In this document: in pieces, positions 2,957-61,840 of the stretch
How positions within the stretch are numbered: position 1 is the stretch's first letter
Layout: the number at the start of each line of letters is the position of its first letter
Source: Negaprion brevirostris
Taxonomy: Eukaryota
DNA: 64,000 nt
Direction of reading: 5' to 3'
Assembly (NCBI GenBank): GCA_030324005.1
Contig: JARDVH010000084.1
Location: forward strand, 31,566,653-31,630,652
Made by a program: the position numbers and the translations under genes
Notes under the pieces: generated by a model
Told to the model about the DNA's origin: nothing
The model's input: the letters and a program-made list of their open reading frames with translations, nothing else
Databases searched by the model: none

Positions 2957-48663
<45,707 letters not shown>

Positions 48664-51053: not shown

Positions 51054-52254
51054 GCATTCCCTTTTTCAACCTCAAGATAACATTACATAAGTGGTTGCAA
51101 AATCTTTCTCCATAAATAGTAGATCACTGTTCATCAATTGGGAGTTTAAGAATCTGTAGGTATCTTACTAATCTTCCCAAATCTCATGATGTATGACAAT
51201 CTTGATTTATTGGTTTGGTGATCTTAACTTGTAGATACATTGCTCTCCTGCATATTGTCGAACTGATAATTATTTTCATGATGGCCTTCCACAATTTGAC
51301 ATTGAGTCCATCTTTGGATGTGTTCTCGATGTATTTGGAATGCTGGGTGTTGTGCAGTTGTACAATTCCCTTAGCTGACTTCTGTTTCTCCATAACATCA
51401 CCCCATTAAGTGTTGCGACCTCATAAGATCTAGGCTTACTGTACACTTGTGATATTTTCACTAGTAACCAGGTTTCCTGGTTAGGATGTATAACCTGAAT
51501 GTATTGTTCTACATGCAGACTAAGCAGTTCCGCACCTTGGTCATATGCCATCTTCCTTCTCCCTTGTTTTCTGAAAGATTTCTTCCTCTATTATTAGGAT
51601 TTGGAAAGGAGGTGGCTTGGCAAGGTTGTTCTAACCAGCCTCTCAAACATGATTTCTGCTGAGAACGGTAGGCCCATCCCTAAAGGTGTTGCCATCGAAT
51701 GTAATTTAGCAAGATGGAGATCTTGTTCTGTTTCTCTGCACTTCACGATTAGTACCTTAACGGTGTGAAACATTTGTTCGGCAAAACCACTCAATCTAGG
51801 ATAGTGTGACAAGTCTGCCACATGAGTTATGCCTCATTTAGCACACGCATCCCTAAAATGGCTGAAAGTACATGGTTGTCTGACATAATGCCTTCAGGTA
51901 TACCCAAAAAATTGAGCATTGAGCTCATTGTGTCCACCACAGATGCCCTCACAATATCCTTCAATTGTCTGATGATTGGTTACTTTTCCATGTTTTCAGT
52001 GATTAAGAGAAAGTTGTTGCCATAGACAGTGAATAAGCCTGTTGCAATTTTGGTTCAAATATGTGATGTAATCTCAACAGGGTGTAGTCATTTTGTTTGT
52101 TGGTGTGGTTGGAAACTCTGGCATGCTTCGCACATCCTGATTACCATCTCAACGTTGGTTTTGAACCTTGGCCAAAACACACTTTCTCTTGCCAAGTGCC
52201 TTGTTCGCTGTATGCCCAGATGCTACTGGTGTAACTCTGGCATAGAGCTTCAGG

Positions 52255-52510
52255 AAGTCTCACAACACCAGGTTAAAGTCCAACAGGTTTATTTGGTAGC
52301 AAACATCACTAGCTTTTGGGGCTTTGCCCCTTTTACAGGTGAGACTTCATCTGTTGGACTTTAACCTGATGTTGTGAAACTCACCTGATGAAGGGTCAGA
52401 GGCCCGAAATCTAGTGGTGTTTGCTACCAAATAAACTTGTTGGACTTTAACCTGGTGTTGTGAGACTTTTTACTGTGCTTACTCCAGTCCAATGCTGGCA
52501 CCTCCACATA
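52255..52510. mobile_element. Miniature palindromic Penelope-derived element inserted in the Gypsy integrase region
   Basis: Arms about 52255-52343 and 52380-52468 inverted; central partial third copy; flanking ttcagg repeat; tail extension on the right side. Confidence 0.85.
52382..52416 (+). ncRNA. Minimal type I hammerhead ribozyme-like motif
   Basis: cac-CTGATGA-a-gggtc(aga)ggccc-GAAA-tc-TA-gtg: catalytic boxes, stem II and stem I (cac/gtg) present; helix III has tc where other copies have gc. Confidence 0.65.
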
Positions 52511-54004
52511 ATAGTTTCAGGTACAGGCACCTGCATTCCTTTGAAAATCAAACCCCTTGAAATTAATTTCTGTATGGCCAAAAGCATCTTTGGGTGTTTG
52601 GAACCTCCTGCATTGCATCAGGCTGACCTTCTACAATAACTTTCTATAGTGCCTTCAGTCATGGAGCATTTGCTTTTTCCTCATGAATTCGGTTGCACTT
52701 GAATTGATCAAAACACGTCAAACTGACAATGAGTGTATCTTCTACTTTGATATCTACTCCTACTCACAGGGCCATGCTGGGTCCACAGGTTTTTTTAAAT
52801 TTGGTTACCCAGTCTGTCTCTGAAATTACCATTTTGTACCTCGGTTTGTAACCATCTTTGAAGTCGTATCTCAATCTTAATTCAAAATCACTCTCATCTG
52901 AGTGGTGCACTGTCAATGGCTTGTGCAAAATCATTTCCAATATTTGTAGCAAATTACCACATTAAATTGTTTACCAGAAAGATATGTGTAGGACCAAATA
53001 TAAAAACAAATCCCTCGCTCTTCATGTTCAAAATAGTTGGATTGTACTTGTGATGCACCTTTGGAACCAAATGCAATTGGTTTTTCCATCTTGAATAATG
53101 CACAGTCCTAAGGCTTTCTGAGATGCCTCAGGCCCCAAGACCACCACCTTTCTTGGGTCAGTGTATTTATTGTAGAACACCGGTCTCTTCTGACGTGTCG
53201 ATTGTCCTCCTACCATACATAAAGAACTTCCTCCTTTAACGGTCTCTAAGCAATGATGCTCTATCACCAAAGTTGGGTATGTATAGCGCTGAGAAATTGA
53301 AGAATCCGAAACATCTCCGCAGGAGAGTTGTAGGCAAACACAGTACATCTTCAAGCTTGCCTGGGTCAGGACAGATCCCAGAAGCTAAATAAGTAGAGCC
53401 AAAAAAAAATCTGACTCACATTCACTGACGTTTCTCACTGTTGAAGNNNNNNNNNNNNNNNNNNNNNNNNNNNNNNNNNNNNNNNNNNNNNNNNNNNNNN
53501 NNNNNNNNNNNNNNNNNNNNNNNNNNNNNNNNNNNNNNNNNNNNNNNNNNNNNNNNNNNNNNNNNNNNNNNNNNNNNNNNNNNNNNNNNNNNNNNNNNNN
53601 NNNNNNNNNNNNNNNNNNNNNNNNNNNNNNNNNNNNNNNNNNNNNNNNNNNNNNNNNNNNNNNNNNNNNNNNNNNNNNNNNNNNNNNNNNNNNNNNNNNN
53701 NNNNNNNNNNNNNNNNNNNNNNNNNNNNNNNNNNNNNNNNNNNNNNNNNNNNNNNNNNNNNNNNNNNNNNNNNNNNNNNNNNNNNNNNNNNNNNNNNNNN
53801 NNNNNNNNNNNNNNNNNNNNNNNNNNNNNNNNNNNNNNNNNNNNNNNNNNNNNNNNNNNNNNNNNNNNNNNNNNNNNNNNNNNNNNNNNNNNNNNNNNNN
53901 NNNNNNNNNNNNNNNNNNNNNNNNNNNNNNNNNNNNNNNNNNNNNNNNNNNNNNNNNNNNNNNNNNNNNNNNNNNNNNNNNNNNNNNNNNNNNNNNNNNN
54001 NNNN

Positions 54005-54230: not shown

Positions 54231-55959
54231 GACTCCAGAGGCAGTGGGTTGAAGTCCAAATGGGGCATGGGTGGCTCCTGATAATGGGCCGAGGGTGGGG
54301 TGGAAGGAGTTGAATGAAGAACAGACTTCCTCTTTTGACTGCTAGCCTTTACCCTCTGGGTTGCTGACATCATGCATGGTCTGGTGAAAGCTGGGGAGAA
54401 TAATGTGTGCGCTGAACTGGTGTTTAAATATGGCACCAGGACCTATGAAACCCCCAGCTGAGGGTGGGCTGACAAATTGGCTGCCCTGGCCAGTGGGACA
54501 GCTGGAGCTACCTGCAATCACACTTGAGCCAGAATTCTCCCATCCAGCCCACCACTGAAATTCTAGTGGGCAGGGGGTGGACAATATAAAGGTCCATTGA
54601 AGTCAGACAGGAATCTTCAGTTTTCAGGCAAGCAAGACTGGAGAAGCCCACCCTTTGTCTCAAAATGGGAGAATTCAGCCTTATGTCTTAGACTCTTTGT
54701 GCGTCTTTTCCAAATCCCTAATCCCCATAAACATGACTATTTTTGAAATCCTTTTATTACACAAAGGTCTGATCAAATCTCAAACTTCAGAAGACTTACT
54801 GAATCGGCTGAAATGGAACTATTCAAGTTACTCATGTTTCTGACCTTATTACATGCAGACTGGTGGCCAGCGGAAAAATTAAAAGCTTTCTTCGCTATTC
54901 ATTTTATACATGATTTCAGTTTGTTTTGTTCTGGTTAAGTATCCAGTTCTAATCTTATAAATCAGTATCATGGCACTTTTCAGGATGACTGCTACTGCTG
55001 CAGCTTTGTACGTTATAGAAAGATCGCACGATTCATTATGCAATATCTGCATTCGCATATCCATTTTGCAAATCTATTGAATATGAAGTCATTTTTGAAT
55101 CATATTTTTCCTTTACAGTTGAATGCATTTCATCTCTAGCACTTAATTTAAAGTCTGTACTTGAATGTTTAATCTTTCTATTCCATACTCCCAGAGCTGA
55201 TTCATTTCAATTGATTCCTTTAGACACTATGTAGGAGATACCAACGTATTCACTTAAATATGGCTTATCTCAATGTCTTTTAATTATTTAGTTCTTGTTC
55301 AAAAGGAAGAGACTTACTAAATTGGACCAGTATTAGTTTACCTGCCCGTGGAGGTAGTGTGTCACACCAGATAAACTATGCATTGGGTGTTAAATAAAGC
55401 TGCATTGCATTGGAAACGTATTCTTTTTTGTCATCATCACGGTAATTCTTGTAAATAAAACCTTCTTGTCCCTATGCGCTCAATACTACTGTCAAATTTG
55501 CTTTGATTAATTATAATTCGGGTGCACTGTGTAGTTCTTTGGCCCATCTTCTCAAGCTGAACAGAACAACAGATAATGGAATCAGATTCTGAGTAGCTAC
55601 TTGCAGGAGATGAGTGGAGCCACCACCATCTGGACGGAAGTGGTTGGAGGTTCGAACCATTTTCATGGTCAGCTTCATCCTCGTTTTCTCAATGATCTGC
55701 AAATCCTCAATCAAAAAGAGGCTTTAAATCCAGTGCAGTGCAGAAAGACAATACCAGTGGAGGATCATGTATCAGGGTGTATGTTTTGAAACCTTTATTC
55801 CTAATTTCTTTTGAACGACCTGTAGCAATCTCATTAAGAACTGTTTATTATCAACAAGTTGGGGGAGGCAATGAACTAACAATCCAGAGGTCTGAGTCAA
55901 AAGTTAGGGGATAAAGGCACAAGTTCCTATTTTCTGTAGAGTCCCAGGCTAGCCACACT

Positions 55960-57662
55960 GACCCCCGCTGACTATAGCATGGTCTGCAAGACATAACAGG
56001 CTACAAGATTAAAGCATATAAAATCATCAGTTCCAACACACCTCTCCCTGATGAGCTCAGTACATTCTATGCCTGTTTTGAGCAAGAGATCAACAAGACC
56101 ATGCCCTCCATCCTGGAAGTTCTGGATGAACCTGTATCTGGGGTCACTATTGCAGATGTCAGAGCAACTTTCTCGAAGGTCAACCTATGGAAAGCAACTC
56201 TCTTGGATGGGGTTCCCTGACGAGCACTCAGATCCTGTGCAGGTCAGCTGGTGGGGGTATTCGCAGACATCTTCAACCTCTTTATAACAATCTGAGGTCC
56301 CAATCTGCTTTAAGAAGATCCTGATACTTAAGAAAAACCAAACAGTGTGCCTTAATGACTATGGCCAATGGCTCTGACATCCATCATTATGAAGTGATTC
56401 GAAAGGCTAGTCTTGGCATGAATTAAATTCCAACCTCCCCGACTACCTGGATCCATTACGGTTTGCCTACTGTCACAACAGGTCCACAGCAGATCCCATC
56501 TACCTGGCCCTGCACTCAACCCTGGAATGCCTAGATAACGTAGACACCTATGTCAGACTCCTATTTATTGACTACAGCTCAGCTTTTGAAACTATTATTC
56601 CCACGAAATTCATCTCCAAACTCCGTGGCCTGGGCCTGGGCCTTGGCTCCCCTTGCTGTGACTGGTTCCTCAACTTCCTAACTCTTAGACCACAATCAGT
56701 AAAGATAGGCAACAACACCACCTCCACGATCATCCTCAACACCCGTGCCCCACAAGGCTGTGTTCTCAGCCCCCTACTTTACTCGTACACTTGTGTGGCC
56801 AAATTCCCCTCCAATTTGATTTTCAAGTTTGCTGACGACACCACCATAGTGGGTTGGATCTCAAACAGTGACAGGACAGAGTACAGGAATGCGATAGAGA
56901 GTCGGGTAAACTGATACAGCGGCAATAATCTCTCCCTCAATGTCGACAAAACGACGGAGATTGTTATCAACTTCAGGAAGCATAGCGGAGAACATGCCCC
57001 TCTCTGTATCAATGGGGATGAAGTAGAAAGGGTCAAGAGCTTCACGTTTTTAGGTGTCCAGATCACCAACAACATGTCCTGGTCCATGCCAACACTATAG
57101 TTAACAAAGCCCACCAATGCCTATACTTTCTCAGAAGACTTAGGAAATTTGGCATTTCAGCTACGAGTCTCACCAACATTTACAGATGCACCATAGAAAA
57201 CATTCTTTCTGGTTGTATCACAGCTTGGTATGGCCCCTGCTCTGCCCAAGACCGCAAGGAACTACAAAAGATCATGAATTTAGCCCAATCCATCACGCAA
57301 ACCAGCCTCCCATCCATTGACTCTGTCTACATTTCATGCTGCCTTGCAAAGCACCCAGCATAATTAAGGACCCCACGCAACCTGGACATTCTCTCTTCCA
57401 GCTTCTTCCTTTGGGAAAAAGATATAAAAGTCTGAGGTCACATAACAACCGACTCAAGACCTGCTGCCCTGCTGCCGTCAGACTTTTGAATGGACCTACC
57501 TCGCACTAAGTTCATCTTTCTCTACAGCCTAGCAATAGCTGTAACACTACATTCTGCACTCTCTCCTTCTGTGTGAACGGTATTCTTTGTCTGTATAGCA
57601 TGCAAGAAACTATATTTTTCACTGTATAGCAATACATGTGACAATAATAAATCAAATCAAAT
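55960..57662 (+). mobile_element. Rex1/Babar-clade LINE, 5'-truncated, with degenerate RT and intact 3' end
   Basis: [87 protein letters not shown]; ends aataataa(atcaa)n. Confidence 0.9.
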
Positions 57663-57799: not shown

Positions 57800-58258
57800 A
57801 TTTCAGCTATGAAGAGAAGCTGGTTAAGTCTGGTGTTTTCGTCAGAGCAGAGAAGGCTGCAGGGGGACCAGATTGAGGTGTGTAAAATTCTGAGGAACGT
57901 AGATAGGGGAGATGGGAAGAAACATATCCCCTTAGTCAAAGGGTCAATAATCAGGGGCCATAGATTTAAGGTAAGGGGCAGGAGATTTTGAGGGGATTTG
58001 AAGAAAACTTTTTCCATCCAGAGGATGGTAGGAATCTGGAACTCACTGCCTGAAACTGTAGTTGTGGTAGAGGTAGGGACCTTCAATACTTAAGAAGCAT
58101 TTACTTGAGCACTTAAAATGCCATAGCATAGAAAGCTACAGACGAAGAGCTGGAAAGTGGGACTAGAACAGTTAGGTAAGTGCTTTGGCTGGCGCAGAAT
58201 CAATGGTCCAAATGGCTTCTTTCTGTGCTGCAAATCTCCATGACTGTGACTCTATGAC
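57800..58258 (+). mobile_element. CR1 LINE 3' fragment
   Basis: FSSEQRRLQGDQIEVCKIL...RGHRFKVRGRRF; tail tgactgtgactctatga. Confidence 0.85.
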
Positions 58259-58399
58259 CTTCCGTCCTTTCTATATCATTTCTGTATTCTCTCTTTTAGA
58301 ATTTAGTTAGCATGTCACAAAATATTATGCAGTGATAAAGCAAAGACATACCTTTCTGTCATCAGGTATCTTGGCCACAACTGCAGAGAAGCTGGATTT

Positions 58400-59060
58400 A
58401 TTTGCACTCGAGGGATAATTGAGGGGCAATCCCCTGATAAATATTTATCCCTCGATCAGCATCGCTAAAAGCACTTGATCTGGTGATTAATTCCCTGCTG
58501 TTTGTGGGCTTTATTGTATGTAAGTTGGCCACTGCACATTTTCAACATTCCAATCGTGACTACATTTATTACTTTGAGATGTCCTTATTTCTTCATTAGT
58601 TTCACAAGTAGGCTCACATTGACACTGCAATGAAGTTCTGCGAAAATCCCCAGCCACCACATTCTGGCACCTGTTCAGGTACACTGAGGGAGAACTTAGC
58701 NNNNNNNNNNNNNNNNNNNNNNNNNNNNNNNNNNNNNNNNNNNNNNNNNNNNNNNNNNNNNNNNNNNNNNNNNNNNNNNNNNNNNNNNNNNNNNNNNNNN
58801 TATTGAATGGTGGGGCAGGCTCGAAGGGCTAGATGGCCTACTCCTGCTCCTATTTCTTATGTTCTTATGTTCTTCTGGACTGTGGGAAGAAACCAGAGCA
58901 GCCGGAGGAAACCCACGCAGGCACGGAGAGAATGTGCAAACTCCACACAGACTGTGGCCCAAGCTGGAATCAAACCTGGGTCCCTGGTGCTGTGAGGCTA
59001 ACCACTGTGCCACCATGCCACCTGAAATTGTGAAAGGTGCTATACAAACGTGAGTTTTTT
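58400..59060 (+). mobile_element. Deu/SacSINE1-like SINE 3' half, split by a minus-strand V-SINE (58590-59020) that itself contains a + strand CR1 end (to 58872)
   Basis: aatatttatccctc...ctttgagatgtcct [insert] cctgaaattgtgaaaggtgctatacaaa. Confidence 0.75.
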
Positions 59061-61554: not shown

Positions 61555-61840
61555 ACTTTAAAGTTTATTTATTAGTGTCACAAGTAGGCTTACATTCACA
61601 CTGCAATGAAGTTACTGTGAAAATCACCNNNNNNNNNNNNNNNNNNNNNNNNNNNNNCTAAGGGACAATTTAGCATGGCCAATCAACCTAACCCGCACAT
61701 CTTTGGACCTTGGGAGGAAACCGGAGCACCCGGAAGAAACCCATGCAGACACGGGGAGAATCTGTGCTGACTGTGCACATAGTAACTCAAGTTGGCAAGC
61801 GAACTTAGGTCCCTGGCGCTGTGAGGCAGCAGTGCTAACT
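61555..61840 (-). mobile_element. V-SINE with alternative (Rex1-like) 3' tail
   Basis: V-core plus minus-strand tail ttttcacagtaacttcattgcagtgtgaatgtaagcctacttgtgacactaataaataaac. Confidence 0.85.

Follow-up and report, generated by a model that had tools for sequence, protein, structure and literature searches.

A high-copy shark V-SINE subfamily with a tail matching both ends of a Rex1 LINE

A high-copy V-SINE subfamily in a 2.69 Gb genome with shark-like repeats ends in ~95 bases that match both termini of a Rex1 LINE. We consider it likely that a V-SINE with a CR1-like tail switched template onto a short, two-ended Rex1 copy, and that the resulting subfamily (hereafter R) was then copied by the Rex1 reverse transcriptase (RT). 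The initial annotation of this DNA had proposed a switch to a Rex1/Babar partner, a proposal now supported by the confinement of the R end to Rex1-type ends and by the 5' end and primer-encoded motifs that mark the accompanying LINE as a Rex1. This reading accounts for a repeat of ~220,000 copies in a shark genome.

V-SINE copies with one head and two tails

The 64 kb stretch of DNA analyzed here (hereafter the window) carries at least seven copies of one tRNA-type SINE, as identified through repeat comparison within the 64 kb. The V-SINE/HE1 label used for this element, including its V domain, is taken from the initial annotation and from our own assumption. Neither ARAGORN nor Rfam returned a match for the SINE head, and A- and B-box-like motifs are visible in the SINE consensus. 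Three copies, located at 22036..22332 and 29290..29579 on the minus strand and at 42944..43270 on the plus strand (the latter being the nearest to the consensus among them), carry by tail comparison a common CR1-like tail (hereafter C), in agreement with the original description of the copies at 22.0, 29.3 and 43.0 kb as ending like CR1. The C tail matches at 81% the stem region (58184-58225) of a LINE 3' end located at 57800..58260 on the plus strand, which we take to be CR1 from the appearance of its translation, and R lacks this CR1-like tail in its entirety.

The copies at 17.8, 58.6 and 61.6 kb share the R tail, as had been noted, but the 20-mer quoted as their common end is matched only approximately by the first two. 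The sole contiguous R copy in the window (17797..18073, minus strand) bears a deletion across the 5' arm and loop of the stem, and the copy at 58.6 kb (58588..59017, minus strand) is split by the insertion of an antisense LINE end and by a gap of 100 N. The inserted antisense LINE 3' end lies at 58801-58870, adjoining the gap, and a similar end is present at 5283-5336. The focal copy, also on the minus strand, comprises an R tail (61555..61628) with a Rex1-type bulged stem (arms 61613-61620 and 61578-61586), a 26-nt loop and a short terminal repeat, followed by a run of 29 N (61629..61657) and by a V-SINE head and core (61658..61839) with diagnostic bases of the C subfamily. The run of N covers the position at which intact copies carry a 20-mer resembling the Rex1 5' end, so that this 20-mer is not visible in the focal copy. 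Both C-type diagnostic sites are present in the focal head, a combination found in none of 143 contiguous R copies. Given its N gap and C-type head, the focal copy may therefore be the junction of two elements, with head and core possibly inserted separately from the tail, and it is a poor type specimen for the R subfamily. Elsewhere in the window, a V-SINE at 42592-42900 has a 52-nt core end in three repeats and is directly followed by a second SINE, and a further repeat family occurs as short inverted pairs (4904-5034, 6236-6476, 31836-32037 and 52254-52513).

The two subfamilies were also surveyed in an unselected sample of 80 stretches of 10 kb, amounting to 652,542 non-N bases. This sample contains 124 SINE heads, 59 of them with a C tail, 46 with an R tail and 19 without a detected tail. 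Consensus sequences built from 46 R and 19 C elements are near-identical over ~195 nt and wholly unrelated after the core, and 46 copies in the unselected sample are full-length and contiguous from head through R tail, which bears out the claim that two unrelated tails occur on one head and core. The tail shared with the CR1-clade HER1, which characterizes HE1 sensu stricto, is present in C alone and absent from R. The 65 R-tail matches in the sample correspond to ~100 per Mb, or ~220,000 genome-wide. R copies stop exactly at a Rex1-type terminus, and 5'-truncated R copies retain that terminus. Three other runs with the labels of different organisms likewise contain the R module deep within contigs, and a short stretch of the SINE core turns up again in one unrelated run (X21).

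A further subfamily (R2), representing about 5-6 of the 44 full R modules in the unselected sample, is defined by a 26-nt deletion at the core end, a 27-nt loop and a 2-nt deletion after the stem, all of which fall outside the eight stem pairs. At ~166.262-166.263 Mb of G000:C1 (L338/L339), head-less R tails form a tandem array of at least three units that repeats every 122-124 nt. Genome-wide, 884 R ends have both stem arms exact and have lost at least 10 loop bases.

Resemblance of the R tail to both ends of Rex1

The candidate partner LINE in the window (55937..57661, plus strand) is 5'-truncated and frameshifted, and encodes an RT (56471-56908) and a PF09004 domain (57091-57282). Its 3' end combines stem arms at 57619-57626 and 57633-57641 (plus strand) with 5-nt terminal repeats. 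A PF09004 search of the genome returned 31,740 candidates, nearly all of them belonging to the same family (hereafter family A; 6-nt loop, 5-nt terminal repeats), the 3' ends of which amount to ~145,000 genome-wide, fewer than the R copies. Rex1 primers target RT motifs about 550 bp apart (PMC4635592), and the peptides they encode are present in the family A RT with one to three substitutions, spaced 563 bp apart in the window LINE and between 546 and 573 bp apart in 10 of the 12 copies taken from the genome; at the DNA level the primers match family A poorly. Rex1/Babar elements feature an AP endonuclease upstream of the RT and 3' tandem repeats of 5-7 nt (PMC4635592, PMC6274825), and family A presents both an AP endonuclease and 5-nt 3' repeats. 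One copy (L390), overlapping the window LINE at 72%, extends from a Rex1 start as far as the endonuclease region and aligns with residues 91-568 of a full-length homologue.

Comparison with the first 400 letters of each ScyCan_Rex1-2 and -3 consensus (PMC13343379 supplement) identified a start motif with 503 exact genome matches (control, 0), and the 30 loci read begin sharply at a common point, differ in the DNA upstream of it and continue as in the published sequence. By eye, family A 5' ends match ScyCan_Rex1-2 over the first ~150 nt. In a tree of RTs bearing no clade label, the family A RT joins the RT+PF09004 homologues, and four CR1-like RTs from this genome lie outside that group; protein searches returned no match labelled Rex1. 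Judged by its 5' end and primer-encoded motifs, this LINE is a Rex1. A rare, older Rex1-type family (family B; L266, L267 and L279) has another stem and another 5-nt terminal repeat, and a search with a family B query returned mostly family A.

At the 3' end, the initially reported 18/20 identity between the minus strand of 61567-61586 and the plus strand of 57633-57652 was reproduced on recheck. Allowing up to three mismatches, the LINE 20-mer has 46 matches in the unselected sample, consisting of 31 LINE ends, 15 R tails and no others, and five replicates of doublet shuffles yielded none, so that in this sample the 20-nt match occurs at Rex1-type ends and in R tails and nowhere else. Scanning the 652 kb for the R arms as two blocks (33 positions, 3-40 nt spacer, score ≥26/33) recovered 35 R copies, 21 Rex1-type ends and three unlabelled positions, by eye two Rex1 ends and one R copy, against 0.33 per replicate in shuffles. 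After R copies, the best matches to the R end (≥26/33) are thus all Rex1-type, with no CR1, L2 or RTE end among them.

The difference in loop length described at the outset was confirmed, with 26 nt in the SINE and 6 nt in the LINE. The compensatory T-A to A-T change proposed for the stem holds as a family trait in the unselected sample, where 26 of 31 long-loop (SINE) ends carry A-T and 15 of 18 short-loop ends carry T-A, the single short-loop T-T match being a mis-registered SINE; it amounts, though, to one event and is weak evidence by itself. The four R copies folded are no more stable than shuffles (z −0.63, 0.48, 0.59 and 0.17; LINE z −1.92), and the outer stem was recovered in the focal copy only. 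With one evolutionary event and folding no better than shuffles, the structural argument is modest. Similarity between R and the family A end is limited to blocks of 11 and 22 nt, with differing loops and terminal repeats, and the near-identical 3' 50-100 nt and identical terminal repeat of a classic stringent SINE/LINE pair are absent. The family A loop itself varies, with 12 different 6-mers among 29 ends. As to the origin of the 26-nt loop, weak matches were obtained to the Rex1 5' continuation (291/5000 shuffles) and to a 3' stem variant (157/5000).

Six genome pattern searches and the unselected sample yielded no LINE that carries the 26-nt loop, the A-T pair or the terminal repeat of R, each negative-context pattern passing a given LINE context only about one-third to one-half of the time. 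Patterns requiring a context other than that of the SINE at the base of the stem produced 249 matches, and the 30 examined are 5'-truncated or locally deleted SINEs with no common upstream sequence and no RT end. Short-loop A-T stems produced 884 matches, of which the 100 listed all look like SINE loop deletions, and junctions placed further upstream produced 597 and 883 matches, where the 100 listed for each, including 30 of the 883 that were examined, are SINE variants. The R terminal repeat combined with another loop end matched 839 times, with no LINE-type arm among the 100 listed and 30 examined, and a SINE-like start with LINE-like continuation matched 22 times, the 20 examined all being SINEs. 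Reads aligned to L002 presented no internal loose-end cluster among the matches listed. Since these searches turned up no such LINE, and since family B exists, family A in its present form need not be the direct partner; the donor was probably related or ancestral to family A, or else the loop and repeat were altered once captured.

The initial reading of the tail as Rex1-like stands, but it missed a stronger sign, namely a piece of the Rex1 5' end within the tail. The 20 bases ending 6 nt upstream of the R stem correspond to bases 5-24 of the Rex1 start, with 18/20 identity to the published consensus and 17/20 to the genome-majority start, a score reached by 7 of 20,000 shuffles (9 of 10,000 in a whole-SINE version of the test). 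In the window, this 20-mer is present as a motif match at 58652..58671 and in decayed form, with four mismatches to a CpG-tolerant motif, at 17858..17877, both on the minus strand. One of the two differences from the Rex1 start is a CpG change, and at the second the SINE base is present in 21 of 50 Rex1 starts, the selecting pattern having allowed both bases. The genome Rex1 5' copies were picked with the same motif and their base counts are therefore not independent, whereas the published consensus is. The C tail has no Rex1 5' match (score 13 vs 25). Within the first 400 letters of the supplement consensus set, ScyCan_Rex1-2 and -3 are the sole entries to contain the two halves of the motif together; one teleost L2 consensus starts with 12 of the 20 bases, and many Rex1 and some L2 consensus sequences begin with similar bases. 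The match spans 20 nt only and was spotted after the fact. The R SINE lacks the first bases of the LINE, presumably a YY1-type Pol II motif. On these sequence matches, the R tail reads as bipartite, with a Rex1 5' piece and then a Rex1 3' stem, in order, behind a small-RNA head, and its donor appears to be a Rex1 of the shark Rex1-2/-3 kind.

Short Rex1 copies that join both ends are common in this genome. Among 50 distinct Rex1 5' ends (within L340-L409), 37 are joined to a family A 3' end within 1 kb (three of these with internal N), one is long, and 12 are without a 3' end within the DNA examined. The two-ended copies consist of a 5' part of 45-150 nt and a 3' part of 102-298 nt, with units down to ~120 nt present (L344), and the 32 that were aligned fall into 23 junction classes, indicating that they arise repeatedly. 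In the unselected sample, two Rex1 5' ends were found against 43 3' matches.

Origin and mobilization of the R subfamily

Median divergence (K2P at non-CpG sites in the unselected sample, mixed subfamilies inflating all three values) is 0.095 for R (n=46, 0.052-0.160), 0.109 for Rex1 A (n=18, 0.066-0.156) and 0.129 for C (n=55, 0.096-0.206). Nested copies comprise R inside Rex1 (L020, L082), Rex1 inside R (L095) and R inside C (L077, L175 and L238, with L124 ambiguous). R is thus younger than C, and the activity of R and Rex1 overlaps. Because the divergences cover R, C and Rex1 only, timing does not exclude CR1-type LINEs. Target-site duplications show no excess over shuffled pairs for R (5.01 vs 4.88, n=71), C (5.00 vs 4.86, n=60) or Rex1 (4.77 vs 4.50, n=52), and insertion signatures consequently do not separate the candidate partners. 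The comparison of target sites and tail repeats suggested in the initial annotation revealed no target-site signal in any family and terminal repeats that differ between R and family A.

In the sequence of events that we favor, a template switch would have joined the RNA of an older, C-tailed V-SINE to a very short Rex1 RNA that retained both ends, giving a product that would keep the Pol III head and lose the CR1-type tail. This product would be transcribed by Pol III from its tRNA-like head, the Rex1 protein would recognize the bulged stem rather than the loop, and priming would take place on the terminal repeat of the SINE itself. Recognition of stem over loop fits with the variable loop of family A and with the R2 changes, which spare the stem. 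The R subfamily is most likely Rex1-dependent. A broader reading, possible but distinctly more tentative, is that Rex1 represents a further LINE clade in which the two RNA ends act together. Its protein might hold the bulged stem at the 3' end together with a short hairpin at the 5' end, and copying might often jump from the 3' part to the 5' end, leaving two-ended inserts with scattered junctions. The SINE would then embody a minimal Rex1 signal of ~80 nt, stripped of the Pol II start and unconstrained in its loop, in a 200,000-copy family swapped from CR1 to Rex1.

Among other explanations, we regard as unlikely a plain capture of the 3' end from a rare or extinct Rex1 family, or from another Rex1-dependent SINE, with family A merely a cousin of the true partner and the 20-mer a product of chance or a generic GC-rich LINE start. 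The loop, stem pair and terminal repeat of R are all unlike those of family A, the older and rare family B demonstrates that a second Rex1-type family exists (and more may escape sampling), and the similarity of many Rex1 and some L2 starts would suit a generic origin of the 20-mer. However, the continuation that marks the shark Rex1-2/-3 families is part of the 20-mer, which sits 6 nt away from the 3' piece and in the expected order, in a genome where short two-ended Rex1 copies are common, and has a score that only the 7 shuffles in 20,000 attain.

Considerably less probable is that R is moved by the machinery of CR1/L2 (or RTE) elements, tolerant of a foreign hairpin, with the Rex1-like pieces being passengers of a one-off insertion into the SINE. 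CR1-type LINEs dominate shark genomes, with 16.6% CR1 vs 1.4% Rex1 in the catshark (PMC13343379 supplement), R (~220,000) outnumbers family A ends (~145,000), and target-site signatures do not separate R from C. Yet R has lost the whole CR1-like tail and ends precisely at a Rex1-type terminus that 5'-truncated copies keep, and the 3' recognition exerted by such LINEs is described as stringent (PMC3747384). That the focal element is an assembly junction, resembling a LINE end by chance in A/T-rich DNA, is hardly credible despite its gap and C-type head, given the 46 contiguous full-length R copies in unselected DNA, the R modules deep in contigs of the three other runs and the failure of shuffles to yield such matches; for the R family as a whole, chance or assembly artefact is refuted by the contiguous copies and shuffles.

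Relation to known SINE/LINE pairs

The template switch from a CR1-like to a Rex1 tail that we favor can be set against several described systems. HE1 and HER1 (CR1 clade) are recorded as a SINE/LINE pair in sharks and rays (PMC3747384, PMC3472496 supplement). HE1, compared here by description rather than by consensus, resembles the C copies, the tRNA-type head and core of which (~195 nt) are common to R and C and the tail of which matches the window LINE end; it differs from R, whose tail is unrelated and of Rex1 type and which is younger and has inserted into C copies.

The pairing of a SINE with Rex1 had been described as not known to be well documented, but at least one published precedent exists, SINE2-5_NV and Rex1-24_NV of the sea anemone Nematostella (PMC3747384 Table 1; PMC3472496 Fig. 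S1). Like R and Rex1, this tRNA SINE and its Rex1 LINE share a short hairpin only (~22 nt) and have different terminal repeats, whereas the hairpin sequence is another, the host is a cnidarian, and the table and figure report no V domain or 5' piece. Among vertebrates, the salmonid SlmI, HpaI and OS-SINE1 are paired with RSg-1 (PMC3747384). These are, like R, vertebrate SINEs with a shared LINE tail. RSg-1 may be Rex1-like with a similar end, an assignment for which the literature searched gave no confirmation; if so classed, it makes the vertebrate SINE/Rex1 pairing already known, though without a V domain.

Bipartite SINEs such as Bov-tA, WALLSI2, CoeSINE4/5 and SINE2-1_ACar (PMC5786205) combine, as R does, a small-RNA head, a conserved core and LINE 5' and 3' pieces, and their donor LINEs also make short two-ended derivatives, as Rex1 does here (37/50). 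Their 5' piece measures ~35-130 nt, compared to 20 nt in R, and the donor of R is Rex1 rather than RTE or Vingi. The main text of Kojima 2018 (PMC5786205) ascribes LINE 5' parts in SINEs to RTE and Vingi only and two-ended short LINEs to RTE, Ingi, Vingi and R2 only, does not contain the term 'Rex', and leaves the clade restriction open as 'sampling bias or specific requirement'. The 5' end of ScyCan_Rex1-2 and -3 is like that of family A, and no mention of two-ended copies or dependent SINEs was found in the text accompanying them (PMC13343379).

SINE tail swapping and one SINE/Rex1 pair are already known. Neither a V-SINE with a Rex1 tail nor two-ended Rex1 copies were found in the literature searched; Repbase, Dfam and the Ogiwara papers lie outside that search and may hold the family. 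The new element would be the role of Rex1 in supplying both two-ended short elements and a SINE body. The R module constitutes a minimal, naturally occurring candidate for the signal that Rex1 recognizes, of which no description was found in the literature searched, and sister subfamilies with one head and different tails offer a clean test of partner specificity. As a minor observation on Rex1 in this genome assembly, three short contigs (L031, L032 and L033; 710-1232 bases) carry well-preserved Rex1-type fragments that cluster with teleost proteins, pointing to contamination or horizontal transfer.
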